Source: a virus. From it: 51,807 nt of DNA. The notes under the pieces are model-generated. The model made no database searches and was not told the origin of the DNA. It saw only the letters and a list, made by a program, of their open reading frames with translations. Location of the stretch: the IMG/VR virus record IMGVR_UViG_3300048919_000084, positions 1 to 51,807 of that record, one strand, 5' to 3'. Shown piece by piece: positions 31,053 through 47,759 of the stretch (position 1 is the stretch's first letter; the number at the start of each line of letters is the position of its first letter). The position numbers were made by a program, and so were the translations under genes.

Positions 31053-31086
31053 TTGCTAAACATGCCCGGATATATTCGGGCATTAT
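31043..31086 (+). promoter_or_regulatory. marbox-type promoter cassette E1
   Basis: ACAGCACTAATTGCTAAACA, 18 bp (hairpin GCCCG/CGGGC), CATTAT. 14/14 marbox positions. ATG 27 nt downstream. Confidence 0.65.
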
Positions 31087-31112
31087 TGCCTCATCGAAAA
31101 GAGGGTTTAAAA

Positions 31113-31325
31113 ATGCTCAACAAAAAAACAATCAAGTCAGAATTTATCAACGGAATCACAGTGATTATCTCTAAACAGTGGATGATTGATGCAAGCGAAA
31201 ATGATTGCTGTTACAAAATCATTCGCAGTGATGAAAATAAGTTTGGCACATGCTACATGCCTGCAGAGGCTGAAATTTACTTCAACATGGTTTGCGATGA
31301 AATTCGCGGCGAAATTCCAATCTGA
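31113..31325 (+). CDS. hypothetical protein (70 aa)
   Basis: ATG after gagggtttaaaa. The track start at 31053 lies inside the promoter cassette. Confidence 0.5.
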   Translation: MLNKKTIKSEFINGITVIISKQWMIDASENDCCYKIIRSDENKFGTCYMPAEAEIYFNMVCDEIRGEIPI

Positions 31326-31337
31326 GAGGCGTTTAAA

Positions 31338-32078
31338 ATGAAAGACGAAAACGATGTTCAAACAGAAGATGCATTCATTACCTTTGAAGAACTTGAGCGT
31401 CAGGATTTGGTTATTACATCTCTTGCAACTGGCGGTCATTACCAGGCAGTTAAACCAGCAACGTCACTTAAAGTTTCGGGCCGACGCTTCCTTGGAAGCA
31501 ACACGCCGGATGCAATCAAAGATTTATGGTCAACTCCGGGTGAGCTTGTAGATTTCATGGAAAATCGATACGGGCCATACGATCTTGATGCGGCAGCCAG
31601 CGCTAACAACGCAGTGTGCGAAAAGTTCTTTGACGAGAAAACAAACTGCCTTAAGCGTTGGTGGGGTAGCAAAAAGCACGTTTGGCTAAACCCACCATTC
31701 AGCAATCCGTTACCATTCGTTGAAAAGGCAGCGGAGCAGGCTCGAAACGGAAATCAGATTGATGTTCTTCTGAATGCTGACAGCTCAACCGCCTGGTTCC
31801 GGCTTGCGCAAATGAGAGCTTCTGAAATCATCTGGATTGTTGCCGATATTGATTATCACATCACTGATGATGAGGTGGTGATTGACACAGCCCACTCAGG
31901 CCGATTAGCTTTTACCAACGCTGACTCTGGCGAGGCTGTTTCCGGCAACAGCAAAGGTCAGGTTATGTTCATCTTCCGTGAAATGAAAGAGGGTGAGCAG
32001 CAGCAGACTCATTACATCTCGATTGGTGAAATTTGCCCATCGGTTAAAAATAAACGCAAACGCAAGGTATCACGTTAA
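31338..32078 (+). CDS. dam: DNA N6-adenine methyltransferase (phage Dam family)
   Basis: Catalytic motif VWLNPPFS. 246 aa. Confidence 0.8.
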   Translation: MKDENDVQTEDAFITFEELERQDLVITSLATGGHYQAVKPATSLKVSGRRFLGSNTPDAIKDLWSTPGELVDFMENRYGPYDLDAAASANNAVCEKFFDEKTNCLKRWWGSKKHVWLNPPFSNPLPFVEKAAEQARNGNQIDVLLNADSSTAWFRLAQMRASEIIWIVADIDYHITDDEVVIDTAHSGRLAFTNADSGEAVSGNSKGQVMFIFREMKEGEQQQTHYISIGEICPSVKNKRKRKVSR

Positions 32079-32311
32079 TGGATATTGTTAAGACTGTAGA
32101 GTTAACAGAAGAGGGCGCATTTCTTTTATTCCGCGCAATCGCAACTGAGGCTTTGATTAATGTCGGGTTTAAGGGAGATGCATGGAAAGAAACAGAGCTT
32201 TTTGACCTGTCTTTTTCTGAGATCTTAGATGAGCCTCTTGAGAATTGGGAAAAAATTATCCTCAATGACGCTGAGGAATATAAAGTTTCCTCACCAGAGG
32301 ATTTTGACTGA
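32078..32311 (+). CDS. hypothetical acidic protein (77 aa)
   Basis: ATG overlaps the dam stop. Confidence 0.55.
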   Translation: MDIVKTVELTEEGAFLLFRAIATEALINVGFKGDAWKETELFDLSFSEILDEPLENWEKIILNDAEEYKVSSPEDFD

Positions 32312-32353
32312 ATAATCGGCTCGCTTAGGCGGGCCTTTGCCAGTAGGTGAATA

Positions 32354-32608
32354 ATGAATATTGAATCAGGACGGCAGGCAGTTTGGCAGCACGCAAAAGA
32401 AGCTGGAATATCAGATGACATATCCTTGATTGCGAAATATTTTGATATCAAGGAAGTCAATATTTTTACTCCCGAAAATGGCGGGAAACTGACATTCATT
32501 GAGCAACGACTTGCGAAGCATGACCGAATTGCCGTAGCCACAAAAACAAGCATGACAACCAAGGATGTGATAAACACCGCCAAGGTTGAAAATAAGAGGC
32601 TGAAATGA
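32354..32608 (+). CDS. hypothetical protein (84 aa)
   Basis: ORF track. RBS taggtg. Confidence 0.5.
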   Translation: MNIESGRQAVWQHAKEAGISDDISLIAKYFDIKEVNIFTPENGGKLTFIEQRLAKHDRIAVATKTSMTTKDVINTAKVENKRLK

Positions 32609-32853
32609 AAACTTTCAATCCGCTCGAGTATGCTCCATACAACGGAGAAATTTACGACGACTCAGATTACAGAGTCATACCTTGCTCTGACTGGTTGCCT
32701 GCAGATTTTGAATCTGTGATGCTTATGGTTTCTGGTTATGAGAAACTGAACTTCGCATACTATTCACCATCTCACCACTGCTTCTTCCGTGAGTGCAGTG
32801 GCGCGAAAATAGAGATCACCAACGCTGAATACTGGTTGAAGAAATTACCTTAA
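32605..32853 (+). CDS. hypothetical protein (82 aa)
   Basis: ATGA overlap with the upstream gene. Confidence 0.55.
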   Translation: MKTFNPLEYAPYNGEIYDDSDYRVIPCSDWLPADFESVMLMVSGYEKLNFAYYSPSHHCFFRECSGAKIEITNAEYWLKKLP

Positions 32854-32899
32854 TAAAGTAATGTGTCCCGGCAAATTAACCAACAAAACAGGCTTTAAA

Positions 32900-34024
32900 A
32901 TGAAACAGAAAATTAGTGACGAGCAGTTCCTGGTAGAGAGAGAGGCCGGCCTAACCCTCAAGCAGATCGCGGAAAAGTACAGCATGAACATCCGCACGGT
33001 TGAAGCTCGCAGCTCAAAGCTGGCCCGATCTGGTCACGGACATGGAAACGAGCACGTTTCGAAACACATCCCGGAAGGTTTTGCCGTCAAAGGCACATCA
33101 ACCATGATTCGCGGTAACGGAGAGGAGGTTGTTCGTTGGGTCAAGTCCGAGGTTGACCGCAATAAAATCATTGCACTGATGAATGCGGCAGCTGATGCAT
33201 TCGCAAGCGAGCTACCACGCACCGAGCCGGTTCAGGAAGTTAAGCAGGATTATTCAGACACTCTGGCTCTTTATCCGGTATTCGATCTGCATATCGGAGC
33301 ACTGGCGCACAAGCATGAGTCAGGTGAAAGCTATGATACCAACCTGGCAGAGCAGACAATGAATAGCTTCTTTGAGTATGGTGTTCAGGCTGCACCAAAC
33401 TCACGCAGGGCTGTTTTATTAATCGGTGGTGATCTGCTTCACTCTGACGGCCTGGACGCGGTAACGCCAGCCAGCGGTCACGTACTGGACCAGGACAGCC
33501 GATATGCCAAACTGGTTTACGTGGCTATCAGATCTCTTCGCCGCGCCGTGAAAACGATGCTCAATAAGCACCAGCAGGTTGAAATTGAGATTATTGAAGG
33601 TAATCACGATCAGGCAACAATGGTTTGCTTGCGTGCTGCTATGGCTGCATTTTATGAAGATGATGATCGCGTGCTGGTCAACGTTTCTCCTGCAATCATG
33701 CACGTAACGCGATTTGGCAAAACGCTACTTGGTTACACACATGGCCACACCATGAAAAAGCCAGAGGCAAGACTCTCAGCGCTCGCAGTAGATCACTCCG
33801 AAGCGTGGGGGCAATCCTCTTACCGCTACACTCACAGCGGTCACTTCCATCACGTCACAGTTACTGAGCACTCGCTCGGGATTGATGAAGTTCACGGTGC
33901 GCTCGCGGCTAAGGATGCATATTCAGCACGCGGAGGATGGCGCTCATACCGTCAGGCGGCGGTGATTATCTATAGCCCTGAGTTTGGCGAGATCGCAAGA
34001 CACATCTATAAGCCGGGTATGTAA
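32900..34024 (+). CDS. HTH domain fused to a calcineurin-like metallophosphoesterase (Mre11/SbcD-like motifs)
   Basis: N-terminal LTLKQIAEKYSMNIRTVEARS, then FDLHIG, GGDLLHSDG, EGNHDQ, GYTHGH and HSGHFHH. Confidence 0.7.
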   Translation: MKQKISDEQFLVEREAGLTLKQIAEKYSMNIRTVEARSSKLARSGHGHGNEHVSKHIPEGFAVKGTSTMIRGNGEEVVRWVKSEVDRNKIIALMNAAADAFASELPRTEPVQEVKQDYSDTLALYPVFDLHIGALAHKHESGESYDTNLAEQTMNSFFEYGVQAAPNSRRAVLLIGGDLLHSDGLDAVTPASGHVLDQDSRYAKLVYVAIRSLRRAVKTMLNKHQQVEIEIIEGNHDQATMVCLRAAMAAFYEDDDRVLVNVSPAIMHVTRFGKTLLGYTHGHTMKKPEARLSALAVDHSEAWGQSSYRYTHSGHFHHVTVTEHSLGIDEVHGALAAKDAYSARGGWRSYRQAAVIIYSPEFGEIARHIYKPGM

Positions 34025-34066
34025 AATAAAAGGGCGGCTAACGTCGCCCATAACTGGAGATTTAAA

Positions 34067-34594
34067 ATGAAACACTTATTTGATGATGTTGAACCTATTA
34101 AATTGCCGCGTGTGGTTATTTGGGATTATGACGGCACCCTTTCATGTGGCAAGCATCGCCTGCACGCTCTGCCAACCAAAGACCTGCACCTTGTTGAATC
34201 ATGGTCAGAGTTCAACGGTTTATGCGTTTACGATGATCCAATACAGGATAATATTGACATTATGAATGCAATGTATGATGCAGGGCTATACGTGGTTATC
34301 CTGACCGGTCGATCAGATGAAGTTCGAAGCGAGTCGCTCAAATGGCTCAAGGATAAGGGCGCTCGCTTTCACATGCTGGAGATGCGCAAGAAGTCCGATA
34401 ATCGCAAGGACACGATCATTAAGGAAGAGTTCTTGCGTGAAAAGGTTGGGCTGAAAAACATTGTTGCGGCATGGGACGACTCACCATCAGTTATTGCGCA
34501 CTTTAGAAGCCTTGGTATCACAACTTATCAGGTAGTTGATTACGGCGACTCTCAACGTTCAGACCTCAAATCACATGGAGTAGAGAAACTATGA
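34067..34594 (+). CDS. HAD-superfamily phosphatase
   Basis: Motif I VVIWDYDGTL, motif II VVILTGRS, motif IV AAWDDS. Confidence 0.7.
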   Translation: MKHLFDDVEPIKLPRVVIWDYDGTLSCGKHRLHALPTKDLHLVESWSEFNGLCVYDDPIQDNIDIMNAMYDAGLYVVILTGRSDEVRSESLKWLKDKGARFHMLEMRKKSDNRKDTIIKEEFLREKVGLKNIVAAWDDSPSVIAHFRSLGITTYQVVDYGDSQRSDLKSHGVEKL

Positions 34595-35157
34595 AAACGG
34601 TAATCATCCTCAACGGGCCTCCTGGGTGCGGAAAGGACACCATTCAGCGAGTTATGTCTCAACGCTATAACCTTGAATCACGCAGCATGAAAGAGCCAAT
34701 GTTTGATCTGGTTCGGGCCATGCTTGGCGAAACCATGTTCAAGCGATTTATGCTTGATTATGATGACCGGACGCAAAAGGAGTCTCCGCAGGAATACCTT
34801 GGCGGAAAGTCACCTAGACAGTTTATGATCTGGATTAGCGAGAGCGTAATCAAACCGCAGTTCGGAAAGCGGCATTTAGGCAACCTGGCGGCTGAAAAGC
34901 TGAAGGTTGAGAAGAGTACGGCAATCTTCAGTGATGGTGGATTCCCGGATGAAGTTGAGGCGATTGTCGAAGCTGGTTTTAAAGTGAAGCTAATCCGGCT
35001 GCATCGTGACGGCTTCACCTTTGACGGCGACTCACGTGATTACATCCATATCCCCCACCTCCTTGGTGGTTGGAATTATGCAGAGAAAGACGTGACACTT
35101 TGCGATGGTGAGATTTACCACGGCGTAAACCATGTTTACCGTGCCGCATTCGGATAG
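34591..35157 (+). CDS. P-loop kinase (T4 gp1 dNMP-kinase-like)
   Basis: Walker A LNGPPGCGKDT. 188 aa. ATGA-coupled to the phosphatase. Confidence 0.65.
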   Translation: MKTVIILNGPPGCGKDTIQRVMSQRYNLESRSMKEPMFDLVRAMLGETMFKRFMLDYDDRTQKESPQEYLGGKSPRQFMIWISESVIKPQFGKRHLGNLAAEKLKVEKSTAIFSDGGFPDEVEAIVEAGFKVKLIRLHRDGFTFDGDSRDYIHIPHLLGGWNYAEKDVTLCDGEIYHGVNHVYRAAFG

Positions 35158-35197
35158 CACCAATTGCTAAACAGGCCCGGATTATTCCGGGCATAAT
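35154..35197 (+). promoter_or_regulatory. marbox-type promoter cassette E2
   Basis: ATAGCACCAATTGCTAAACA, 18 bp (hairpin GCCCGG/CCGGGC), CATAAT. 14/14 marbox positions. The TAG of the box is the kinase stop codon. Confidence 0.65.
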
Positions 35198-35231
35198 CAC
35201 CACATCAAAAATAAATACAGAGGGCCGGTAA

Positions 35232-35351
35232 GTGAAAGATTTTATCAATTCAGCAACACGAGCAATGATTAATGTCGGGCTTGGCTGCATAGTAACTGGC
35301 GCTCTGATTTGGGTTATCATGCTGGCCTCAAACTTCAAAGGTTTTTTCTAA
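35232..35351 (+). CDS. small membrane protein (39 aa, GTG start)
   Basis: GTG 35 nt after the -10 box. Hydrophobic core VGLGCIVTGALIWVIMLA. Below the track cutoff. Confidence 0.4.
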   Translation: MKDFINSATRAMINVGLGCIVTGALIWVIMLASNFKGFF

Positions 35352-35530
35352 TGCGAGATTTTTTAGTTAAATGCACGCGGAACACTTCTCAGACTCTTCC
35401 TTATTGCGAGGGTGAAACTTACCAGGCAAAGTACGAGGGTAAAGGACTGGTTAAGGTGTTCGACGAAAAAGGCAGTTTTATTCAATGTCCTCTCAATGGG
35501 TTTTATCTGGATTTCGAAGAAATTAAATAG
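35351..35530 (+). CDS. hypothetical protein (59 aa)
   Basis: ATG overlaps the preceding TAA (TAATG). Confidence 0.5.
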   Translation: MRDFLVKCTRNTSQTLPYCEGETYQAKYEGKGLVKVFDEKGSFIQCPLNGFYLDFEEIK

Positions 35531-35555
35531 CCCGCATAATCAGTGATTAACATAC

Positions 35556-35579
35556 GGCTGCACTTTGTGCGGCCTTTTT
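35556..35579 (+). terminator. intrinsic terminator
   Basis: ggctgcac-tttg-gtgcggcc hairpin followed by T5. Confidence 0.6.
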
Positions 35580-35583
35580 GCGT

Positions 35584-35613
35584 TTGATTAATTTCGCTAC
35601 AAGGTGTTATCAT
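35584..35613 (+). promoter_or_regulatory. lysis-cassette promoter TTGATT-18-(TGt)TATCAT
   Basis: TTGATT at 35584-35589, TG at 35605-35606, TATCAT at 35608-35613. Same box types as the capsid promoter at 7320. Confidence 0.5.
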
Positions 35614-35658
35614 CCCGTCAAATTGAACCACTTAAAACACACAGGATTAGAGGCTATT

Positions 35659-35877
35659 ATGATGCGCGATTTTGTCAACGCAACCACCATGACTTCGGGT
35701 GGTGTAACACTAACAGGGGCTGCTTCCGGGCAGTTGGTTATCGGTATTTTGGGTTTGGTTTTCATGATCCTTTTTGGTGTATTTGGTGCCTGGCTGAGGC
35801 TAAAAGACTCCCGCGCATTACGCCGCGCTCTTGAGGTTGGTGATATCAAAACTGCAATGCAGATCAGGAGCAAATAA
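35659..35877 (+). CDS. holin
   Basis: 72 aa, MMRDF... with hydrophobic [23 protein letters not shown] and a charged C-terminus. Immediately precedes the endolysin. RBS GAGG. Confidence 0.7.
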
Positions 35878-35878
35878 T

Positions 35879-36373
35879 ATGGGCATCATCAACCGTTACA
35901 CTGCTGGCACTGCATTCGCCGCAGCTCTGGCATTGACGCCAAAGCTACTTGGGGACGTTGAAGGAACCAGCTACTCGCCATACATTGATATTGCTGGGGT
36001 GCCAACCGTTTGTGAGGGAATTACCGGACCCGATGTGGTTATGGGTAAGAAATACTCAAGACAGGAGTGTGACAACCTGCTTTATAAGCATATCGCCGTA
36101 GCTAAAAAGGCTGTCGATGATTCGGTTAAGGTTAAGATCCCGGACACAATGAGAGCGTCGCTGTACAGCTTCACCTACAACGTTGGCGGTGGCGCTTTCA
36201 GATCTTCAACCATGCTAAAGCTGATCAACAAAGGCCAGCTGTTGAAAGCATGCGATCAGCTATTTGTATGGGAGAAGTTCACCGACCCAAAGACAAAGAA
36301 AAAAGTCCACTCGAAAGGGCTGCATAACCGCCGCCTGGTAGAGTTCTCTTATTGCGTTAAGGATCTTAAATGA
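35879..36373 (+). CDS. endolysin (T4-lysozyme/GH24-like, probable SAR type)
   Basis: Weakly hydrophobic N-terminus [14 protein letters not shown], then the catalytic pattern EG..Y.PY.D..GV.T.C.G.T. Confidence 0.85.
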
Positions 36374-36771
36374 AACGATTAATTGTTATCGCATTTGCTT
36401 CAATCCTGCTACTTGGGTGCGCGTCGAATCCTCTGGATATCGTCAGCGCCGTGACCGGTTCAAAACCTGACATGACAGCTCAGGTTGGTGCAACAAACAC
36501 CAAGCAGGCGGTTGGCCTGACGGCTAACACTGACGCCAGCAATGAGACCGACGCCACGGTAAAGGATTCAACAGTAGGAAGCCTGGATAGCTCCAGCGGG
36601 AAAAAACTGAGCGCCACCAGTATCAGTGCCGGGATTATCAAAGCTGACACCATCCAGATCACAAACGCCAGCAGCGAATCAGGATGGCAGTGGCTGGCAT
36701 TTGGAGTCGCTTTCCTTATAGTAGCCGGTCTTGTCATACATTGGATTTTTCAACGTAAGAAAGCCCCATAA
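36370..36771 (+). CDS. unimolecular spanin (T1 gp11-type)
   Basis: Lipobox LLLGC at the N-terminus and a C-terminal [23 protein letters not shown]. 133 aa. Confidence 0.8.
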
Positions 36772-36784
36772 GGGGCTTTTTTTA
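36759..36784. terminator. bidirectional terminator (lysis genes / leftward operon)
   Basis: aaagcccc-ataa-ggggcttt hairpin followed by T-run. Confidence 0.75.
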
Positions 36785-36955
36785 TTCGTACAGCCTGACG
36801 TGAATTATACAAACACCATCCTCGTCGTTTAGTCCGTGCTCAAGCTCTCCAGAAGCCCTCATTGATGAAGCCATAAGCTGAAGCAGCGCCATGTTAAGAG
36901 CGCCTCCCGAAATCTGATTGATGGCGCAACACTCAATTATGGCGTCTATTACCAT
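36782..36955 (-). CDS. hypothetical protein (57 aa; start uncertain)
   Basis: The internal ATG at 36955 avoids a 59-nt overlap with the upstream gene. Confidence 0.35.
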   Translation of the reverse strand: MVIDAIIECCAINQISGGALNMALLQLMASSMRASGELEHGLNDEDGVCIIHVRLYE

Positions 36956-36962
36956 CTGACTT

Positions 36963-37319
36963 TCATGAAAGCTGCTTGTCGATTTCACCAAAAATCTCCT
37001 CATCGTCCATCTTGCCAACATTCAGCATAAGTCTGATGTAGTTGCTTTTCTTCGCGTCGATGGAGTGCAGGTCAAACATAAATGGCCTGCGAGCTTTATC
37101 CTTGACCCAAACCAAACCCCGATTCATATCAAGATACCCCTCCGTGCAAAGTCTGGGTATAAACTCACGAGCAACGCACGCCGCAAACTGCTTAGCCGTT
37201 ATGTCAGCGTGCCTGGCCAGCCTTTCACAGTCTCTGTGTGAATAGACATAACCCGCCAAATCCTGGCGGGTGAAGTTCTTGTGTGATTCGCAGTAACGGA
37301 ACAGATCGAATAAAAACAT
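36963..37319 (-). CDS. hypothetical protein (118 aa)
   Basis: ORF track. Closely follows the 526-aa gene. Confidence 0.55.
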   Translation of the reverse strand: MFLFDLFRYCESHKNFTRQDLAGYVYSHRDCERLARHADITAKQFAACVAREFIPRLCTEGYLDMNRGLVWVKDKARRPFMFDLHSIDAKKSNYIRLMLNVGKMDDEEIFGEIDKQLS

Positions 37320-37322
37320 CTC

Positions 37323-38903
37323 TTACCGCCCTAAGAATGCCGGGTTAATAAAAACGTCCTGATTGATGACGCACACATAATTCATCTCTTCCAGCTTGGC
37401 AAGAAGATGATCGCGAACCTTGGTTGTCACGCCAGCCTGGCCAGAGAAAGGCTTAACTTTTCGAGCCATCTCAATCAGAGTGCGCATCTTAATTACACCT
37501 TTTGAGGTTGGGCCGCGCTTAATGATGACGTCAATCAGAGCGCGAATCTCAGCATCCTCACCAGCGTGACCGGCAGCATTCGCCGCTGACAGGTATGTTT
37601 TGCTCAGCTCGTAAAACATCATGATTGCTTCCTGCATTGTCTCAAACTCAATCGTCTTTGACTTCTGAGCGCTTGAGTTAGGTGAATGCCAGTTGCGGAT
37701 CACATGAAGAACTGACGCAATCCTGATTGCCTGCTTATCGAATTTACCCATCGCACCACGAAGCATTGAGTGTGAGTATCGACCGCCATCCGATAAATCT
37801 TTTTCCATCTCCTGACGAGCTTTGTTGAGTAACCGCTCAGCAGCCGAACTAACTTTCAGGTTGACCTCAGTCTCTGTCATGATCTCGTGAATGAGCTTGT
37901 AATACTCTGCAACCAGAGACTTATCCACGCTCTCAAAAGTTGAGTTACCATTCTCATCAATGAACTGTCGCCGACCAAGGAAAGACTCCTCTCGAACCAA
38001 CAGGAATCGCTCTGAAACACCAATACCTCGCGAGCCGGCAGACATGATGGAATCAATGGTTTCGTCCTGAGCAATGACCGCAATGGCACCCATGGCAACA
38101 AAGCTCATGTTGTTATCAGCGTTGGCACGAGCGATAGAAACGTGACCGCTATCCCATGCTTTAAGCACGAGTTCACTGTTTGTTTTGCGAGAGCTATCCT
38201 GGTAAGTCAGACCAAGCAAGCTGTTGATACTGGTTGCCTCATCCGAGATAACGGAGAAGTTTCCTTGCCGATAGTTGATGCGTGCCAGACCTTCTGGCGT
38301 GGTATCGGAAACCGGAAAAATAACGTCACCCAGCTTTTCGAGCTTCTCCTGTAAATCCTCCTGCTCAGCATAAAGATCGGCAAGCTCAGTCTTTGACTTC
38401 TCCCCCTTCATTTCGTTTTTAAGTGCTGACAGCTTGGCGAGCACTGTCTTTCTCTCCTTCTTCCTGAGTTCATTGATACGCTCTGACTCAGCAACCATCG
38501 GCGCAATTGCCAGGCTGTTGATCGCAGACTTACCTGTTGACGGCGGCTGGCTTGTCACAACGTAAAGTGCTGTTGGCTGCTTTGTCCCGTGATAGTCAAC
38601 GGTAAAGCGCCCAAGCATTGCTGAGCTGACACAGGCCAGGAAGTGAATATAGGCTGATGACTCTGGGAACTGGATAGAGCGAGAAGCATTGCCAGCCAGC
38701 TTGCCAACAATGTCAACGTCATTGCCAAGTGAGATTGCCGGGTACTTTTCCGCACCGGTTTCAACGTCAGCAGCATCACCCCAAAAGTTAGCGGCGTAAG
38801 CATATCCACCTTCTGAGATCGCAACGCGCAGAGGGCTAAGGCCAGACTGGTTTGCAATTTCGATAATTTGTTGTGGGCTGATTCGCGCCTGAAATAAATT
38901 CAC
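37323..38903 (-). CDS. large P-loop-containing protein of unknown function (526 aa)
   Basis: Walker-A-like SQPPSTGKSA. GTG start 7 nt after GGAG. Confidence 0.6.
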   Translation of the reverse strand: MNLFQARISPQQIIEIANQSGLSPLRVAISEGGYAYAANFWGDAADVETGAEKYPAISLGNDVDIVGKLAGNASRSIQFPESSAYIHFLACVSSAMLGRFTVDYHGTKQPTALYVVTSQPPSTGKSAINSLAIAPMVAESERINELRKKERKTVLAKLSALKNEMKGEKSKTELADLYAEQEDLQEKLEKLGDVIFPVSDTTPEGLARINYRQGNFSVISDEATSINSLLGLTYQDSSRKTNSELVLKAWDSGHVSIARANADNNMSFVAMGAIAVIAQDETIDSIMSAGSRGIGVSERFLLVREESFLGRRQFIDENGNSTFESVDKSLVAEYYKLIHEIMTETEVNLKVSSAAERLLNKARQEMEKDLSDGGRYSHSMLRGAMGKFDKQAIRIASVLHVIRNWHSPNSSAQKSKTIEFETMQEAIMMFYELSKTYLSAANAAGHAGEDAEIRALIDVIIKRGPTSKGVIKMRTLIEMARKVKPFSGQAGVTTKVRDHLLAKLEEMNYVCVINQDVFINPAFLGR

Positions 38904-40158: not shown

Positions 40159-40167
40159 TATTGATCC

Positions 40168-40419: not shown

Positions 40420-40478
40420 TCATCTCGCTTTGGTAATCGGGCCGGAACATCCGACCCATGGTGTTGGTTTTAAACCGC

Positions 40479-41439: not shown

Positions 41440-41469
41440 TTCAATCTCCGTTGTTTCCGATGTGACTGC

Positions 41470-41514
41470 AGTATGCCCCATTGCATTGCTGAGTGGTTAG
41501 GCAAAAAGTGCTAT
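41470..41514 (-). promoter_or_regulatory. marbox-type promoter cassette E12
   Basis: ATAGCACTTTTTGCCTAACC, 19 bp, CATACT. 13/14 marbox positions. The TAG of the box is the stop of the peptidase gene. Confidence 0.6.
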
Positions 41515-41888
41515 CGCTTAATCCACAATGCCTGGCCGGGAAATGGCATCTCATAGCAATCCAGTGATTCCCGCCTGCCATACCACGGACACCAGATTGA
41601 TTCATCCGGATACATCACGATCCAGTGTGAATGGCTGGAGCCTCTTTCCTGCCGGACTCGAACGATTCGCTTACTGCCAATCGTCTTACTGAATGGAACG
41701 CGCTCCATATCCAGGCAGAAGAAGTCACCAACAGCAATCAGATCTTTATAGCTGGATGCGTTCGGGCCTCGGTCAAGCGCACCACGCCAGCCAATCTCAA
41801 TCTCAAAGTAACTGACACCAAGCAGAGTAGCCAGAGCAGCAACCCCGCAATCATCTTTCTTACGCTGATGAATGAATGTCTCGATCAT
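41511..41888 (-). CDS. papain-fold cysteine peptidase, C39-like
   Basis: KKDDCGVAALATLLG (catalytic Cys context) and SHSHWIVMYPDE (His). ATG 8 nt after GGAGG. Confidence 0.55.
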   Translation of the reverse strand: MIETFIHQRKKDDCGVAALATLLGVSYFEIEIGWRGALDRGPNASSYKDLIAVGDFFCLDMERVPFSKTIGSKRIVRVRQERGSSHSHWIVMYPDESIWCPWYGRRESLDCYEMPFPGQALWIKR

Positions 41889-41917
41889 ATCCAAATCCTC
41901 CAGTTGGGTGAGACTGA

Positions 41918-41961
41918 AGCATAACGCCATTCATTCCTGATCGGTAGGCAAAAAGTGCTAT
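41918..41961 (-). promoter_or_regulatory. marbox-type promoter cassette E11
   Basis: ATAGCACTTTTTGCCTACCG, 18 bp, TATGCT. 12/14 marbox positions. ATG 30 nt downstream. Confidence 0.55.
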
Positions 41962-42250
41962 TTCATGAGTGCAGTTACATAGCACGCAATTGAATAGCGC
42001 GTTAGTTAATAGTGAGCGATTGAATAGTGTATGTGTTGTCACCTGACAACTCTTATTGCTTTCAAATCCTTATACTCCCGATCCAGATGTGTATCGTATT
42101 GCGGTACAGCTGTATCACATCGTGGGTTTAGTTATGTATCGGTCATTACATTATTGAGTTTGTGTATGGGTTGATGTGATGAATACACCCACCACGCCGG
42201 ACAATTTTTCCATAATTCCCAGCCAAAAGTATCATGCCAGGCTGGTGAGT

Positions 42251-42719
42251 TTGTCCCATTTGTCCCATTTTCCTGCAATTTTGAGAGTGGGACAAATCGT
42301 GAAAATTTATCCTTATAAAGTAGTAACTTGCGAGCTTGTCCCAACTTGTCCCAAAAAGTGCGGAAAAAAATCCGGGGCACTTTTTAGTGCGAAATGGGAC
42401 ACGATTGGGACAAATATATCTCCCTTAAGTATATGATAATAAAGATTATTATTATTATATGTATATATACTCGTCCCATTTGTCCCATTATCTGCCCCGG
42501 AAATATGAGGGGTGGCATATTGTGGGGAGAAATCTGAATGATAATTCCGGGTTGTTCCGCGCACAAAATATATAAGGGGGGTGGAAAAATCCGGGGCACT
42601 TTTTGGGACAAGGCATTTTTGGGGGTGTCGGCATCTGATTTATAAGGAGTTTTTTGCTCAAATTTGTCCTTGGACAAAAATGTTGACCCAAAAGTTTGTC
42701 CCGGATACAATGGGACAAA
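42251..42719. repeat. non-coding island B: inverted copy of island A (GGGACAA/TTGTCCC array around an A+T-rich core)
   Basis: Boxes at 42251, 42260, 42289, 42336, 42346, 42386, 42397, 42472, 42480, 42605, 42696 and 42712. TTTGTCC-TT-GGACAAA at 42663-42678. The reverse complement of A aligns along its whole length. Confidence 0.85.
42683..42711 (+). promoter_or_regulatory. strong sigma70 promoter TTGACC-17-TACAAT (rightward early promoter)
   Basis: TTGACC at 42683-42688 and TACAAT at 42706-42711. The -10 lies between TTTGTCCC (42695-42702) and GGGACAAA (42712-42719). Confidence 0.7.
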
Positions 42720-42757
42720 TAAATCACAGACCATTGGCACAATAGAGGAAAAAATCC

Positions 42758-43207
42758 ATGCGTGAGAGTAAGTTAGCGTTCAGACACTTCCTGCAGCAGG
42801 CAGCAATGAAGCTCGCGGCGGGTGAAGTCGAAAAGATTGAGTTCAATGCACAGCAGATTAGCATTCGATATGAGGGCCTGGAAAACCCTCCTCAGCACTA
42901 TTTTCGCAATGCCATTAACTCGTACAAGCCGTTTAAGGATGCAGGCCATCTCTGCAAGGTCACAAAGCGCGGCGAGGATTACATGATTACCCTGGTCGAA
43001 GGTGGTCAGGCTTCAATCCGGCCCCGCAATGGATACAGCTCGAACGATATGAGTGACGTGATCGTGAAGGTGGTTCAGGCAGTGATGAGCGCGAAGGTTG
43101 ACGCATCACATCTGACCGGTAAGCAGGCGGAAGCATTCCAGGCTGGTGCTGATGCATATCGTGAGGCGCTGGCTGCAACTCTGGGGGAGATGACCAGTCA
43201 TGGCTAA
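42758..43207 (+). CDS. hypothetical protein (149 aa), first gene of the rightward operon
   Basis: RBS GAGGA. ORF track. Confidence 0.6.
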   Translation: MRESKLAFRHFLQQAAMKLAAGEVEKIEFNAQQISIRYEGLENPPQHYFRNAINSYKPFKDAGHLCKVTKRGEDYMITLVEGGQASIRPRNGYSSNDMSDVIVKVVQAVMSAKVDASHLTGKQAEAFQAGADAYREALAATLGEMTSHG

Positions 43208-43415
43208 AATCTACATTGACTCCACGACAGGGGAAATCCTTGAGAACGTGGTTGAGATTCGCGAGCAGGCCTCAAAGCCACGCGGGCGCATGGTGAAGGT
43301 TACGTGCGGCGCACCAGGTTGCACTAATCAGAAAGACGTGCGCCCGGCTGACCTGGCTCGTGGGTGGGGTAAGTTCTGCAGCAAATCATGCGCAATGAAA
43401 TCGAGGCAATCATGA
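43200..43415 (+). CDS. small Cys4 zinc-binding-like protein (71 aa)
   Basis: CGAPGC...CSKSC. Overlaps the upstream gene by 8 nt. Confidence 0.55.
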   Translation: MAKIYIDSTTGEILENVVEIREQASKPRGRMVKVTCGAPGCTNQKDVRPADLARGWGKFCSKSCAMKSRQS

Positions 43416-43615
43416 GTAATAAACCAGTATTTTGCCGCATCCGTAAAATCGGAGCACACAGCGCAATGAGTGCCATCCATGACGGTCGCATTTATATCAG
43501 ACTTAAAGGCAGGGGTTTTATCTCTGTTGAGGATAAGCCAGGAATTGCTGACTATGTTGCAAGCCAGGTTAAATACAACAAAGACCACTACTTTTATCTA
43601 AAATCTTCCAGTTAG
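43412..43615 (+). CDS. hypothetical protein (67 aa)
   Basis: ATGA overlap with the upstream stop. Confidence 0.5.
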   Translation: MSNKPVFCRIRKIGAHSAMSAIHDGRIYIRLKGRGFISVEDKPGIADYVASQVKYNKDHYFYLKSSS

Positions 43616-43655
43616 CACTTTTTGCTAAACACGCGGGAAAGGATTCCCGTATTAT
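43612..43655 (+). promoter_or_regulatory. marbox-type promoter cassette E3
   Basis: TTAGCACTTTTTGCTAAACA, 18 bp (hairpin CGGGA/TCCCG), TATTAT. 13/14 marbox positions. TAG is the upstream stop. Confidence 0.65.
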
Positions 43656-43702
43656 CTACTCATCGGCAGCAGACAGCAGCCACCAACCAGAGAGATAAAA
43701 AA

Positions 43703-43984
43703 ATGACTACAGCATTCAAAATTGCAGCACTGAACGCACTTTCCAAATCAAACAAATCAAGTGACATTCTGGCAGTTGCATCAATAAGAGTGCGCACCAA
43801 AGCGAAAGAGCTGAAAGTTGGCGATATCGTTAAAAACATCATCACCAAAGAATTCTATCCGGTTGCCAGCATCGACAAAGACAGCCTCTGCTACCTGGTT
43901 ACTCTCGACTGTTGCACATCAGTTGGTGGTAGCGCATTCACTATGGATCTGGTAGGCGATTTCGTTGACGTCTACGCCGCTTAA
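43703..43984 (+). CDS. hypothetical protein (93 aa)
   Basis: ATG after agagagataaaaa. The track TTG start lies inside the promoter box. Confidence 0.55.
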   Translation: MTTAFKIAALNALSKSNKSSDILAVASIRVRTKAKELKVGDIVKNIITKEFYPVASIDKDSLCYLVTLDCCTSVGGSAFTMDLVGDFVDVYAA

Positions 43985-44027
43985 TAGCACGAATTGCAAA
44001 ACCCGGATCGGATGGTTCGGGTATTAT
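43984..44027 (+). promoter_or_regulatory. marbox-type promoter cassette E4
   Basis: ATAGCACGAATTGCAAAACC, 18 bp (hairpin CCCGGA/TTCGGG), TATTAT. 13/14 marbox positions. Confidence 0.65.
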
Positions 44028-44065
44028 CTACTCATCGGCAGTAAAAACTAATCAAGGGGTATATC

Positions 44066-44203
44066 ATGTTCAAACTTTACGTTAAGCACTTCGGCTGTGA
44101 TTATGAGCTGGAGGATACATTCAACAGCAAAGCTGAGGCTGTATCTGCTGGTAAGTTCATGCTTTCCAATGTTCGCGGCGTAGTCAACTACCGCGTCGAA
44201 TAG
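44066..44203 (+). CDS. hypothetical mini-protein (45 aa)
   Basis: ATG 39 nt after the -10 box, RBS aagggg. Stop TAG is part of the next cassette. Confidence 0.4.
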   Translation: MFKLYVKHFGCDYELEDTFNSKAEAVSAGKFMLSNVRGVVNYRVE

Positions 44204-44243
44204 CACGAATTGCAAAACATCGCCCCGCTCAGTGGGGCATAAT
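44200..44243 (+). promoter_or_regulatory. marbox-type promoter cassette E5
   Basis: ATAGCACGAATTGCAAAACA, 18 bp (hairpin GCCCC/GGGGC), CATAAT. 13/14 marbox positions. Confidence 0.65.
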
Positions 44244-44273
44244 CACCACTGAAACAAGCAAAGAGAATTCACC

Positions 44274-44645
44274 ATGCAGCAGATCACCAATGCACTTGAG
44301 CTTTTCAATGCGGCAAATGATTATGGCGACAGCGTTACACCTAAAGATGTTCGTATTGAAAGCAGAAACCACGTCAACCACCATTTCATCAATCGCGCAC
44401 AGTTTATCGCAATGGACAGTGACGGGAAGGTGTACACATACGCACTGAACCCGGCAAGCCTTATCCATGGAGACAGCAAGGAAGGTGATTCGGTGGAGAT
44501 GGAGTGGGAGAATGACTATTGGTGTGCAATGAACGGAACCGTTGCTCGTTACATCGGCACACTCAAGGGGGAGCTTCGTGAACTAATAACCTCAAAGGCA
44601 GCATGCTTCCCAATCGACGACAACTTTTACCCGCTGGGGGAATGA
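44274..44645 (+). CDS. hypothetical protein (123 aa)
   Basis: ORF track. RBS agagaa. Confidence 0.6.
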   Translation: MQQITNALELFNAANDYGDSVTPKDVRIESRNHVNHHFINRAQFIAMDSDGKVYTYALNPASLIHGDSKEGDSVEMEWENDYWCAMNGTVARYIGTLKGELRELITSKAACFPIDDNFYPLGE

Positions 44646-44782
44646 TGAAAACTGTATGCACTTTTTGCGGTGGTTATGGTTGCCACCAAGAACTGGCTCA
44701 AGACTCGGAAGGAAGCGACTTTTGGGTTGAGGAGCAGTGTGAAGACTGCGAAGGAACAGGAGTGATTGACGATGAAGATTAA
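44642..44782 (+). CDS. 46-aa mini-protein with two DnaJ-type CxxCxGxG zinc-finger motifs
   Basis: CTFCGGYG and CEDCEGTG. ATGA overlap with the upstream gene. Confidence 0.5.
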   Translation: MMKTVCTFCGGYGCHQELAQDSEGSDFWVEEQCEDCEGTGVIDDED

Positions 44783-44951
44783 ACTGCATCGCGGTGATTT
44801 CGGTTGGTGGTTCGGCATATCAACTAAATTCAAGCGCGGCATGATGTGGAACCGATGCAGCATTGTGTATGACGGTTGCAGAATGCATGCGCTATGGGTT
44901 CTTGGTGTTGGCTTCCAGTTGTGGGAAGCAGGAAAGGACGGCGAAGTATGA
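44772..44951 (+). CDS. hypothetical protein (59 aa)
   Basis: ATG 9 nt after GGAG. Overlaps the previous ORF by 11 nt. Confidence 0.4.
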   Translation: MKIKLHRGDFGWWFGISTKFKRGMMWNRCSIVYDGCRMHALWVLGVGFQLWEAGKDGEV

Positions 44952-45052
44952 AACATGACTCGCACTACAAAGCCTGGATGATACGCCGCATGGTGGATGC
45001 ATTCCTGTACCATAAGGCGCGGGAGGGGCTTGAGAAGATAATGACCCGATAG
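44948..45052 (+). CDS. hypothetical mini-protein (34 aa)
   Basis: ATGA overlap. Stop TAG embedded in cassette E6. Confidence 0.35.
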   Translation: MKHDSHYKAWMIRRMVDAFLYHKAREGLEKIMTR

Positions 45053-45092
45053 CACTTTTTGCAAAACGCCGCCTGACGTAATCAGGCATAAT
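45049..45092 (+). promoter_or_regulatory. marbox-type promoter cassette E6
   Basis: ATAGCACTTTTTGCAAAACG, 18 bp (hairpin GCCTGA/TCAGGC), CATAAT. 13/14 marbox positions. Confidence 0.65.
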
Positions 45093-45121
45093 TAACACTC
45101 AATCAAAAACGGAGCGGTAAA

Positions 45122-45595
45122 ATGAAAATCAAGGTTAATTTCGGTTTCTGGGATGTGGTTCAATTTCTCCTGAACTGCGCGATCTCAATGCAGACAGGTG
45201 CGCTTGTCGGTAAGATGGTTGTCAGGAGCTTGGAGGGTAGCGGAGCGCCACCAATGGTAACGCTGCTCACCTCTCTGCTGGCAATACTGGCGACAGTGAT
45301 TATCACGGCGAAAGCGCTTTTCAGTTTCGATGCATGGATTAATTCCTTTGTCGAAAGCAAGCGGGGCCGCAAGTACCGAATCCAGATCCTAAACATCCCG
45401 CAAGCATGGTCAATCTGGTTGGTCGATAAGAGCACGACAAACAAGAGCGCATTCAGCGAGGCTGAAGGTTATGGGGTGTTTGGGATCGGGTTCTTCAAGC
45501 ATAAATATGGTGACAAGCTGTTTAATGTTTGCCGCCGAACGCACTTCACAGCTTACCGCTTCTGGCGCTTCTCGGTAGAGATTGGCAAGCGATAG
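45122..45595 (+). CDS. membrane protein (157 aa)
   Basis: Two or three hydrophobic helices (VVQFLLNCAISMQTGALVG; PMVTLLTSLLAILATVIITA). Confidence 0.6.
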   Translation: MKIKVNFGFWDVVQFLLNCAISMQTGALVGKMVVRSLEGSGAPPMVTLLTSLLAILATVIITAKALFSFDAWINSFVESKRGRKYRIQILNIPQAWSIWLVDKSTTNKSAFSEAEGYGVFGIGFFKHKYGDKLFNVCRRTHFTAYRFWRFSVEIGKR

Positions 45596-45635
45596 CACGA
45601 ATTGTTAAACGTGCCCGGCTAATGTCGGGTATTAT
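45592..45635 (+). promoter_or_regulatory. marbox-type promoter cassette E7
   Basis: ATAGCACGAATTGTTAAACG, 18 bp (hairpin CCCGG/TCGGG), TATTAT. 14/14 marbox positions. Confidence 0.65.
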
Positions 45636-45664
45636 TTTATCTCAACCAATCAGGAGTAATGACC

Positions 45665-46198
45665 ATGCAAAAACTGAATGAATTGTTAGAGCAAGCAACG
45701 GAAATTTCCGCCACTCACGGCAGCGAATGGAGCAGCGCACTTTCTCAGGATAAATACGGGAATCAAGCGCACGAGATAATCTGCGATAGCCACGGTGAAA
45801 CTGTAGTTTCAACTGGCAGCAACTCAAATGATGCATCATGGCTTTGTGACTACCTGGAACTTTGCAGCCCACACAATATTCTCGCCATTGCCAAAGAATT
45901 CAGTGCGATGGAGAAGCAGCGTGACGCGCTGGCGGCTGAGAATGTTGCTATGAAGCGTAGCCTTAAAGTTATCGCCTCATCAGAGCAATTGGACGGGGAG
46001 ACTGTTGTGTGCGACTTCGACTCACTTGTATCTGTAGCTGCCGGAGCAGTCAAAACCCCAGCCACCGACACCCACCTGAACTCTGTGCGTGAGAGCTTTT
46101 TGGATGAGGCAATCCATGCACTCGTTGCATCTGGAGCGCAAAGTTTTGGTGATTGCATGGTCGCATTAAACCAACTCCGCGCAGGAGAGCCATCATGA
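45665..46198 (+). CDS. hypothetical protein, paralogue of 46437..47123 (possibly ead/Ea22-like)
   Basis: MQKLNELLEQATEIS...NILAIAKEFSAMEKQ parallels MKELNELFELAKEIS...NILAISEAFRALEQR. Confidence 0.6.
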   Translation: MQKLNELLEQATEISATHGSEWSSALSQDKYGNQAHEIICDSHGETVVSTGSNSNDASWLCDYLELCSPHNILAIAKEFSAMEKQRDALAAENVAMKRSLKVIASSEQLDGETVVCDFDSLVSVAAGAVKTPATDTHLNSVRESFLDEAIHALVASGAQSFGDCMVALNQLRAGEPS

Positions 46199-46437
46199 CA
46201 AGCGAAGAGAAGCAGGCGCTGATTAAGTTTGCTGAAAGCGTTTTGGCTAACTATGAAAGCGGCAGTTATATGGCTGGTACAAAAAGCGAATCGTTAATTC
46301 GAATCGCACTCGCCACCCTCACCGCGCAGCCGGTTAAATGCCAATCTTTTGACGACTATAAACCACACGCTGCGGAAGAGCTTCGTGCCGCATTTATCGC
46401 GGCCATCCGTGCAACAGGCTATGAGGTACAGGAATAA
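46195..46437 (+). CDS. hypothetical protein (80 aa)
   Basis: ATGA overlap. RBS AGGAG 8 nt upstream. Confidence 0.55.
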   Translation: MTSEEKQALIKFAESVLANYESGSYMAGTKSESLIRIALATLTAQPVKCQSFDDYKPHAAEELRAAFIAAIRATGYEVQE

Positions 46438-47123
46438 TGAAAGAGCTGAATGAATTATTTGAGCTGGCGAAAGAAATCAGTTCCAAGCAATGGTTTCTTA
46501 ATGCCGATGAAGAAGTAATCGCGGTCGATAATGATGCGGGGCCGGATGATTCAGGTGAGGCTTTTATCGGATGTGCTGCCAACATTCAGTTGGCAAATTA
46601 TATTGCGGCTGCATCGCCTGAAAACATCCTCGCCATTTCCGAAGCATTCCGGGCGCTGGAGCAGCGAGCAGAAGCAGCAGAGGCTGAGTGCTCAAGACTG
46701 AATCGAGAGTCGCAAAACCTCAGCAGCCAGCTTGGGCAATGTGACCGCGAACGGCGTGTGGCTTTGTCGAAGCTGGCAGGGCTGGTGAAGCAGAAGCCGG
46801 TTGGAACTGTCAGCATCGCTATGGATTGGAACACTCACCGTAATGTTGCGACAGTTAATATGCGCCCTGATCTTGTGGTGTCAGAAATGAAAGACGGTGA
46901 TGAACTATTCACCCGCCCCGCGCCCGCCGTCAGCCTGGCTGAGCTGGTGCCGGATGAATCAGCACTAGCAGATAAGCATATTGAGTGGTTAAGCACTCTA
47001 CAGCGACCAATGTTCTCTGATGAAGATTGGGAAGAGTTAACACTCTATACATGGCTGGCTTTCAGGGACTCTGCAAGGGTTCAACGCGCTGAGATTCTGC
47101 GCAACATTGAGGAGTCAAAATGA
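46437..47123 (+). CDS. hypothetical protein, paralogue of 45665..46198
   Basis: Shared N-terminal and coiled-coil blocks (see 45665). Confidence 0.6.
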   Translation: MKELNELFELAKEISSKQWFLNADEEVIAVDNDAGPDDSGEAFIGCAANIQLANYIAAASPENILAISEAFRALEQRAEAAEAECSRLNRESQNLSSQLGQCDRERRVALSKLAGLVKQKPVGTVSIAMDWNTHRNVATVNMRPDLVVSEMKDGDELFTRPAPAVSLAELVPDESALADKHIEWLSTLQRPMFSDEDWEELTLYTWLAFRDSARVQRAEILRNIEESK

Positions 47124-47458
47124 AAATCGGAACACTTACAACTCAGACTATGGAATCCGGCTCAATGCAGGATGACAAAACCTACAACCTTTATATTCAG
47201 GTTGAATCAATTCCATTTATGTTTGTTCGTGATGAGGGTGGGGTGATTTTAACAGATCAGCTTTCATCAGCTGGAATTCATTTCAGAATGGACCAGTCAA
47301 TGCAATATGACGGCGTGCCGGTTTTAATTACGGGATTAATGTCAGGGGCTGCGATTGTTGTTGTTCAGGAAAAGATGGAGTGGCACTCCTCGCCTGATGT
47401 TGGTGACAAGATGTGGATTAACTTAGATGACCCATACCTGAAATACACTGGAGAATAA
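47120..47458 (+). CDS. hypothetical protein (112 aa)
   Basis: ATGA overlap. Confidence 0.55.
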   Translation: MKIGTLTTQTMESGSMQDDKTYNLYIQVESIPFMFVRDEGGVILTDQLSSAGIHFRMDQSMQYDGVPVLITGLMSGAAIVVVQEKMEWHSSPDVGDKMWINLDDPYLKYTGE

Positions 47459-47460
47459 TC

Positions 47461-47688
47461 ATGCGTCGCCACCAGGTAACATGCACATGCCAGGCTTACG
47501 AGTTCCCTCACAGATTTGGTGGCGGAGCTTGCAGCGGCATGTCAGTAGTTGAGTCTGCCATTGGTGGCGAGCACTGCCAGTCATGCCACCTGCTAAACGG
47601 TGGTTGCGAAGTTCTCAAAGGTCAGGAGCATCCGAGAGAATGCCCTGCTGTCCAGGATTTCATTCAGTATTGGGAAATAAAGCTATAG
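47461..47688 (+). CDS. Cys/His-rich small protein (75 aa)
   Basis: CTCQAYEFPH...C...HCQSCH...C. Confidence 0.55.
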   Translation: MRRHQVTCTCQAYEFPHRFGGGACSGMSVVESAIGGEHCQSCHLLNGGCEVLKGQEHPRECPAVQDFIQYWEIKL

Positions 47689-47728
47689 CACTTTTTGCAA
47701 AACATGCCCGCCGCCGTGCGGGTATTAT
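47685..47728 (+). promoter_or_regulatory. marbox-type promoter cassette E8
   Basis: ATAGCACTTTTTGCAAAACA, 18 bp (hairpin CCCGC/GCGGG), TATTAT. 13/14 marbox positions. Confidence 0.65.
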
Positions 47729-47759
47729 TCTATCAACGCAAACAAATGGAGATTAACCA

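Follow-up and report, generated by a model that had tools for sequence, protein, structure and literature searches.

The closest described counterparts of the DNA elements analysed here are the promoter-early-stem-loop (PeSL) elements of T4-like phages, whose stem-loops lie mostly between the -35 and -10 elements or overlap the -10 (PMC2839356). One PeSL stem-loop equalled the rrnB T1 terminator in lowering the expression of a lacZ placed downstream, and PeSL motifs mediate modular gene shuffling, with crossovers mapped to the stem-loop (PMC2839356). PmSL elements, described in phage nt-1, combine a Mot box, a -10 and a stem-loop (PMC4122927). In T1-like phages, a 21-nucleotide (nt) intergenic direct repeat, aaATAGCACnnnTTGnTAAAA, occurs in TLS, T1, Rtp and Rogue1, and in TLS it is oriented with transcription, the start codon following after about 76 nt (PMC11447400). 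A 2024 paper asks what this repeat does and lists its function as an open question (PMC11447400). For the MarA/SoxS/Rob promoters of Enterobacteria, the marbox is defined as gcannwwntgnnaaa, and class II sites are in forward orientation and centred at -36 to -55 (PMC12052159). Here, these systems are compared with the repeated promoter cassettes of IMG/VR virus record IMGVR_UViG_3300048919_000084, the whole 51,807-nt stretch of which (the window) holds the complete genome of a T1-like siphophage (Drexlerviridae). The closest deposited relative is Pantoea phage vB_PagS_AAS23 (Drexlerviridae, Sauletekiovirus; hereafter AAS23), with about 74% nucleotide identity across the replication and lysis genes.

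Most cassettes in the window carry a hairpin within the promoter itself. The reading favoured here, with a probability of roughly 0.6, is that these hairpins work at the RNA level, as parts of a composite cassette of promoter and stem-loop that corresponds, in Drexlerviridae, to the T4-type PeSL and PmSL elements, and that they likely act as an attenuator and/or a block to 3' exonucleases.

Repeat finding and pattern scans of both strands located 15 cassettes in the window, 11 on the plus strand and four on the minus strand. Their order is (A)ATA-GCACnnnTTGCnAAAC (the box), 19 nt, (T/C)AT(A/T)AT, about 5 nt and C-A(+1)TCGAAAC. The box is the TLS/T1 repeat: sequence, intergenic location, orientation and distance to the start codon (about 67-88 nt in the window) all agree. 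With GCAC...AAAC taken as the box, the spacer measures 19 nt; with the marbox's usual extra 3' base it measures 18 nt, the length given in an earlier reading made from the letters alone (the sequence-only reading). A -10-like hexamer lies exactly 19 nt from the box in 78% of 375 box instances outside the retrieval pattern (position 2 is A in 84% and position 6 is T in 83%), and the -10 is thus genuinely part of the cassette and no artefact of the filter. The conserved C-A(+1)TCGAAAC is found 12 nt past each -10 start (e.g., 31093, 43662 and 50117). The predicted start is the A of its CA, 7 nt past the -10 (the A of CATCGAAAC), and box positions are expressed relative to it, which places the box at -47 to -32. 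From the predicted start to the Shine-Dalgarno sequence the leader is C/A-rich and G-poor, so that, together with the common motif, all cassette mRNAs would have an unstructured 5' end in common. Every cassette has a GGAG-like motif and an ATG or GTG 25-50 nt past the -10. The stop codon of the upstream gene is usually the TAG of aTAGcac (e.g., 35155-35157, 44201-44203 and 47686-47688), meaning that coding sequence overlaps the box.

Spacer hairpins occupy 10 of the 15 window cassettes; they are GC-rich, with 6-9 pairs, -8.0 to -13.7 kcal/mol and arms that differ between copies. Folding energies were computed over 24 nt, each against 200 shuffles. The cassettes are as follows.

31046-31086, plus strand: box 31046-31061, hairpin 31064-31081 (GCCCGGA/TTCGGGC), -10 CATTAT 31081-31086; -9.7 kcal/mol, 1/200 shuffles as good; stop codon TAA of the upstream open reading frame (ORF) at 31050-31052, within the box.
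35157-35197, plus strand: box 35157-35172, hairpin 35175-35192 (GCCCGGA/TCCGGGC), -10 CATAAT 35192-35197; -13.7 kcal/mol, 0/200 shuffles; upstream stop the TAG of aTAGcac.
43615-43655, plus strand: box 43615-43630, hairpin 43633-43650 (GCGGGAA/TTCCCGT), -10 TATTAT 43650-43655; -9.3 kcal/mol; two compensatory G-C to C-G swaps relative to AAS23.
43987-44027, plus strand: box 43987-44002, hairpin 44001-44022 (nine pairs including G.U, beginning in the last two box bases), -10 TATTAT 44022-44027; -12.6 kcal/mol.
44203-44243, plus strand: box 44203-44218, hairpin 44222-44238 (GCCCCGC/GTGGGGC), -10 CATAAT 44238-44243; -12.1 kcal/mol.
45052-45092, plus strand: box 45052-45067, hairpin 45071-45087 (GCCTGA/TCAGGC), -10 CATAAT 45087-45092; -8.0 kcal/mol.
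45595-45635, plus strand: box 45595-45610, hairpin 45613-45630 (GCCCGGC/GTCGGGT, with G.U), -10 TATTAT 45630-45635; -11.7 kcal/mol; the most T-rich tail of the set.
47688-47728, plus strand: box 47688-47703, hairpin 47706-47723 (GCCCGC/GCGGGT), -10 TATTAT 47723-47728; -10.0 kcal/mol; the weakest z-score, 33/200 shuffles.
50760-50800, plus strand: box 50760-50775, hairpin 50775-50795 (AGCCGGTC/GATCGGCT), -10 TATATT 50795-50800; -12.1 kcal/mol, 0/200 shuffles.
39424-39464, minus strand: box 39464-39449, hairpin 39448-39429 (GCCCGCA/TGCGGGT), -10 TATATT 39429-39424; -11.6 kcal/mol; one compensatory swap relative to AAS23.
51537-51583, plus strand: box 51537-51552, stem 51562-51569 / 51576-51583 (GGGGCTGC/GTAGCCCC) around most of the -10 TATAGT 51572-51577; -15.8 kcal/mol, 0/200 shuffles.
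50070-50110, plus strand: no hairpin (0 kcal/mol); opens a unit, the upstream gene 49154-50035 lying on the other strand.
41918-41958, minus strand: no hairpin; opens the leftward unit from the control region at 41.96-42.76 kb.
41471-41511, minus strand: no stem and a weak -10, despite a co-oriented upstream gene; the sole true exception.
22230-22269, minus strand: no hairpin, 18-nt spacer; opens a one-gene leftward unit amid rightward tail genes.

The sequence-only reading had listed seven arm pairs, complementary but different from copy to copy, and all seven are present: GCCCG/CGGGC (31064-31081), GCCCGG/CCGGGC (35175-35192), CGGGA/TCCCG (43633-43650), GCCCC/GGGGC (44222-44238), GCCTGA/TCAGGC (45071-45087), CCCGC/GCGGG (47706-47723) and GCCG/CGGC (50775-50795). 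The last of these falls outside the range 31062-47722 to which the pairs had been assigned, and the list lacks three of the spacer hairpins (plus strand, 44001-44022 and 45613-45630; minus strand, 39448-39429). The mapping of that reading's labels E1-E14 is ambiguous; in the best fit, E1-E8 are the eight plus-strand copies from 31046 to 47688, E9 is 50070 and E10 is 50760.

Taken singly, the window hairpins have moderate z-scores (-1.2 to -6.4) because shuffled short GC-rich sequences fold easily. A wider set of 371 unique cassettes was assembled from AAS23 and 105 IMG/VR stretches, almost all contigs of 47-52 kb. In this set, 46% of cassettes reach -8 kcal/mol or lower, against 2.7% of shuffles, and the energy distribution is bimodal. 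With only 2.7% of shuffled spacers at that level, the probability of finding at least 10 of 15 by chance would be below 1e-6 even at p = 0.1. Composition does not account for this excess. Chimeric sequences, with their 5' half from one cassette and their 3' half from a second, retain position-specific composition but fold far worse than native sequences, and a composition artefact is rejected: the mean for the window's ten hairpins is -11.1 kcal/mol in native form and -5.8 kcal/mol in chimeric form, and 26% of chimeras reach -8 kcal/mol.

A covariance model seeded with 17 hairpins retrieved 90 sites, 59 of them distinct. In an alignment that was fitted to the structure and is therefore biased towards it, 95.7% of cells in the distinct sites are paired, against 80.8% in shuffles; two-sided changes occur at six of seven pairs, and sliding the register lowers pairing to 23-52%. 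The covariation score is 0.429, compared with 0.174 in shuffles, and none of 500 shuffles reached it. Six hairpins have orthologues in AAS23, and between the two phages they show three compensatory changes, two one-sided changes that keep the pair, no disruptive change, nine changes in loops and two in flanks. In orthologous families of other phages, loops are free to vary, while stems are retained or swapped for different stems. By the chimera test, the covariance alignment, the compensatory changes relative to AAS23 and the free loops with retained stems, the hairpins are a real feature with robust statistics, and selection acts on their pairing as RNA, in line with the earlier claim that structure and not sequence is selected.

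The same evidence leaves next to no probability for the stems being by-products, without selection on pairing, of a promoter preference for G at -14/-13, a C-rich partner and the copying of one ancestral cassette. Such a history would fit the conservation of G at these two positions even in stem-less cassettes (62% and 57%) and the many arms of the form CCCG.../...CGGG. However, arms such as GCCTGA/TCAGGC, GCGCCAA/TTGGCG and GCGGGG/CCCCGC depart from the CCCG/CGGG pattern; with chimeras of the same composition folding far worse, orthologous changes being compensatory and loops evolving freely, this account is largely refuted. The pairing extends into the promoter core. The -12 base, the first of the -10, covaries with the 5' foot of the stem, C with G and T with A (e.g., 31081, 35192, 44238 and 45087), and it departs from the consensus, as C, in 47% of cassettes with a spacer hairpin and in about 30% of the remainder. 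Hence, the predicted hairpin appears to constrain a core promoter base.

A hairpin encoded in a promoter could fold as RNA or as DNA, and the two strands of these stems are not equivalent. Internal non-Watson-Crick stem positions are G.T or T.G in 21 instances and A.C in none; the opposite strand would be mismatched at these positions. The sense strand folds better in 74 of 98 cases. Among 49 distinct tetraloops, 18 are GNRA and three are UNCG (expected, about 3% and 1.6%), and no GNRA loop occurs on the antisense strand; the evidence from loops comes from relatives, as the window itself has no GNRA loop. The G.U-only wobble and the sense-only GNRA loops argue that the folding molecule is most likely sense-strand RNA and not a symmetrical DNA cruciform. 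The sequence-only reading had offered extrusion in supercoiled or single-stranded DNA as an alternative, which these strand-specific features disfavour. In a fuller form of that alternative, the inverted repeat would act as a cruciform or single-strand hairpin, in the spacer or around the -10, that tunes promoter geometry, senses supercoiling or serves as a structure-specific recombination site moving the cassettes. Stems with the -10 in or at the loop are common, PeSL crossovers mapped to the stem-loop (PMC2839356), and homology breaks fall in cassettes more often than length predicts (see below), all of which suit a DNA element. A cruciform, however, needs both strands paired, and the unit-opening cassettes, which are promoters too, have no stems; action as DNA is judged improbable. 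Stems of 6-9 bp with loops of 4-6 nt also extrude poorly.

The presence of a stem follows the upstream gene. In the window, the co-oriented ORF upstream of a hairpin cassette always ends within or at the box. Of the 12 cassettes that follow a co-oriented gene, 11 have a stem, as against none of the other three (Fisher p = 0.009); the 12 comprise ten spacer stems, one stem around the -10 (51537) and one cassette without any (41511, minus strand). As had been proposed from the sequence, the unit-opening cassettes (50070, plus strand; 41958 and 22269, minus strand) are all stem-less. That proposal also named further stem-less exceptions, and it stands for 41511, which lacks a stem despite its co-oriented upstream gene, but not for 51537, which has the stem 51562-51583 around its -10. 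Among 345 related cassettes, a long co-oriented frame ends at the box in 95% of those with a spacer hairpin, 73% of those whose stem spans the -10 and, where there is no stem, 51%. Because the stems lie upstream of the predicted start, only read-through RNA would contain them; the earlier view that a transcript from the cassette's own promoter lacks the hairpin and a read-through transcript carries it agrees with this geometry.

From the structure, its selection, its folding strand and its link to the upstream gene, we infer an effect on RNA. The cassette is a compact intergenic module in which the stop codon lies in the box, the hairpin fills promoter positions that are free in sequence, and the -10, a predicted start 7 nt further on, the leader, the Shine-Dalgarno sequence and the next gene follow. 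A polymerase arriving from the upstream gene would transcribe the hairpin; one starting at the cassette's own -10 would not. The hairpin would then mark the 3' end of the upstream message, directly before the A/U-rich -10 sequence, and would probably cause partial termination (attenuation) and/or block 3' exonucleases once the read-through RNA is cut. Either effect would curb the build-up of transcription where small co-oriented genes stand in series.

The position of the stems speaks for termination. Among 110 distinct spacer stems, 101 end exactly at the first -10 base, and all four that are not flush with the -10 are followed by TTTT or TTCT inside the spacer; being flush with the -10 or trailed by a T-run, the stem is always followed by an A/T-rich tract. 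Moreover, the GenBank record of T1 labels three of T1's four spacer hairpins as rho-independent terminators, and in TLS the terminators T62 and T57 adjoin repeats DR12 and DR10.

Several points weigh against the composite reading and temper the probability given above. On a d'Aubenton-Carafa-type score, the ten window hairpins are all negative (-20 to -57; nT 0.65-1.9, d < 0). No T enrichment was found in or after the -10 of hairpin cassettes relative to stem-less ones, and the commonest -10 in hairpin cassettes is CATAAT. A search of the literature on T1-like phages found no data on transcript 3' ends, start sites or stability. The cassettes of the wider set share kinship, which inflates the p-values obtained from that data set. 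Finally, no single terminator role covers all predicted stems, since many adopt the second register described below.

The score separates the window hairpins from a canonical terminator of the same phage (35556-35574, +12.9). The tails after the stems are AUAAU or AUUAU followed by the C/A-rich leader, with no U-tract, and in antisense orientation the scores of the window hairpins are no better and also negative. A canonical intrinsic terminator on either strand is rejected by these negative scores and the missing U-tract. The genome does have canonical hairpin and T-run terminators elsewhere, at 35556-35574 (plus strand) before the lysis genes and at 48874-48896 (both strands) between convergent genes; the phage thus does make use of ordinary terminators, and the cassette stems form a distinct class. 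An attenuator and/or a hairpin protecting 3' ends is favoured over an efficient terminator. The sequence-only reading, in which the hairpin is a 3' stabiliser or weak terminator for the upstream gene, is the best mechanism at hand and has considerable, though indirect, support in the upstream-gene link, the sense-strand RNA and the selected pairing, whereas all ten window hairpins fall short of a canonical terminator.

Protection by itself, with no termination at all, is possible but rather doubtful. The hairpin would then be a pure 3' stabiliser or processing mark: polycistronic read-through RNA would be cut in the A/U-rich, unstructured -10 and leader, and the hairpin would block 3'-5' exonucleases. 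The stem could sit anywhere from the stop codon to the start site, which would explain the two registers, since the stems of either kind follow the stop codon and precede the leader. The lack of selection for a U-tract is in keeping with this account, as are the GNRA and UNCG loops, which lend RNA extra stability. However, an exonuclease block needs neither an adjoining A/T-rich -10, with which spacer stems are nearly always flush, nor the T-run that follows the rest. The composite reading, in which attenuation and protection may both operate, is the preferred one.

Spacer hairpins are not the only structures in these cassettes. Many cassettes without a spacer hairpin have a stem whose 5' arm lies in the 3' half of the spacer (e.g., CGATCGGGGTA) and whose 3' arm lies in the discriminator and first transcribed bases (TACCCCATCG), with the -10 in or at the loop. 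This second common register was missed by the sequence-only reading, which placed the hairpin in the spacer only. The 371 cassettes include 181 spacer stems and 130 stems enclosing the -10. Where a spacer hairpin is lacking, 55% of cassettes have at least five pairs across the -10; chimeras do so in 28% and arm shuffles in 20% of cases, which puts the register beyond chance. The register also covaries. It predominates in phage T1 (e.g., cassettes 1453, 2272, 3538 and 6534) and occurs in a further sequence of the comparison (L001, 33057 and 49635), and AAS23 and T1 share the register of window stem 51562-51583. Downstream of second-register stems, T averages only 0.55 per 8 nt, a near absence by which they are not intrinsic terminators. 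Conceivably, the two registers are not terminators but a structure-based switch or mobility signal of marbox-type cassettes, in which a fold of the promoter region, brought about by read-through transcription or supercoiling, would gate the firing of the next activator-dependent promoter or the stems would be crossover sites of mobile 'promoter + small gene' units. This is considered unlikely; if true, it would, together with a wholesale use of host MarA/SoxS/Rob-type activators, answer the question of the T1/TLS 21-nt repeat.

The fixed position of the hairpin within a regulatory cassette might also suggest a recognition site for a trans-acting RNA- or DNA-binding factor, such as a nut/boxB-like antitermination site or the operator of a dimeric repressor. 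Neither arms nor loops are conserved in sequence, and a search of Rfam 15 gave no match at the gathering threshold, its sole hit at E < 1 being unrelated; a boxB/nut-like or operator reading is rejected on the variation of arms and loops, and recognition by such a factor in general is very improbable.

In addition to their putative regulatory role, the cassettes may coincide with sites of gene turnover. Between 42 and 48 kb, homology with AAS23 is reduced to cassette-sized islands (43614-43710, 45592-45667 and 47685-47759) between unrelated small ORFs. At 31046, homology breaks inside the cassette, the 3' half of which resembles a different AAS23 cassette, and the window phage has an extra small gene directly after it (31084-31335). 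The extra gene and the islands form the pattern expected if cassettes mediate gene shuffling. Among related loci, 105 of 781 homology breakpoints fall in cassettes against 26 expected by length, a 4-fold excess in a count uncorrected for intergenic bias.

Beyond the cassettes, the window has two features that may concern its own regulators. Of 20 early ORFs scanned against Pfam, 19 had no match at E <= 0.001 and none reached a curated cut-off; the exception is a 137-aa ORF (28110-28523, minus strand) with a sub-threshold Cro/NinH-like helix-turn-helix. This ORF is the homologue of a 'transcriptional regulator' annotated in AAS23 and T1 and the sole DNA-binding candidate among the 20. Separately, the heptamer TTGTCCC/GGGACAA occurs 23 times against 6.3 expected and clusters in gene-poor control regions at 26555-27031 and 42251-42718, where many copies are paired, in tandem or inverted, near a sigma70-like TTGACC-17-TACAAT at 42683-42711. 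The heptamers resemble operators or iterons for a DNA-binding protein of the phage.

T1-like phages, which are abundant, serve as model systems and in phage therapy, yet very little has been described of how they program host RNA polymerase. Concrete, testable predictions follow if the repeat is taken for the upstream part of a compact promoter with a fixed -10, a conserved predicted start and a selected RNA hairpin. For genome annotation, this reading implies that the stems should not be entered as plain rho-independent terminators, nor the cassettes as plain repeats.

Parts of this arrangement are already known piecemeal, the repeat in TLS and the 'terminators' in T1, and the spacer hairpins of T4-type PeSL and PmSL elements precede it. 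The paper on the TLS/T1 repeat makes no mention of a fixed -10, a marbox match or hairpins (PMC11447400), all of which are found in the window cassettes. Like intrinsic terminators, the cassettes have a GC-rich hairpin of -8 to -14 kcal/mol, 18-25 nt after the stop codon, with loops that are often GNRA or UNCG in relatives; in contrast to them, the window stems have no U-tract, their tail being the -10 and a C/A-rich leader, and their scores are sub-threshold. The box matches the marbox definition at 11 of 11 specified positions; it faces forward and, counted from the predicted start, has its centre near -40, as in class II MarA/SoxS/Rob promoters. The phage cassettes differ from these in their spacer hairpin, none being described for host promoters in the literature found; a MarA paper on promoter base-pair distortion (PMC12781870) has no bearing on spacer hairpins. 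No phage-encoded MarA homologue was detected by tblastn or in the Pfam scans of the 20 early ORFs, and it is plausible that a host activator of the MarA, SoxS or Rob type acts on the predicted phage marbox. Literature searches on marbox or Rob in T1-like phages, on Drexlerviridae start sites or RNA-seq, and on the motif text returned nothing relevant, the one RNA-seq candidate being a T5-like phage.

The resemblance to PeSL elements noted in the sequence-only reading is well founded, as their stem-loops, too, mostly occupy the interval from -35 to -10 or overlap the -10 (PMC2839356). The combination with an activator box is no novelty among such elements, because PmSL elements, in which an activator (Mot) box replaces the -35, already combine such a box with a -10 and a stem-loop in phage nt-1 (PMC4122927). 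The differences are nevertheless clear. The window phage is a T1-like siphovirus, whereas PeSL and PmSL elements belong to T4-like myoviruses; the upstream element is a perfect marbox-like 16-20-mer and not a -35 or Mot box; the box contains the upstream stop codon; and the stems run right up to the -12 base, which they include. In all these phages, a repeated intergenic module comprises a promoter, a stem-loop, a Shine-Dalgarno sequence and a start codon (Arbiol et al., 2010, PMC2839356; Comeau et al., 2014, PMC4122927). The stem-loop mostly separates the upstream promoter element from the -10 or overlaps the latter, and the stem is variable in sequence. PeSL and PmSL cassettes adjoin small genes without known function in variable regions, as homology islands where genes are gained, lost and replaced, and the window cassettes would resemble them in this. 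Given the different phage family and the marbox-like box, the window cassettes are an analogue of PeSL and PmSL elements and not a member by descent. What is new here is that a cassette of the PeSL/PmSL type occurs outside the T4-like phages, in another family, and has a predicted marbox-type upstream element: the unrelated T4-like and T1-like lineages would have arrived at the same promoter-with-stem-loop module for small accessory genes, a convergence that suggests a general way to insulate and shuffle them.

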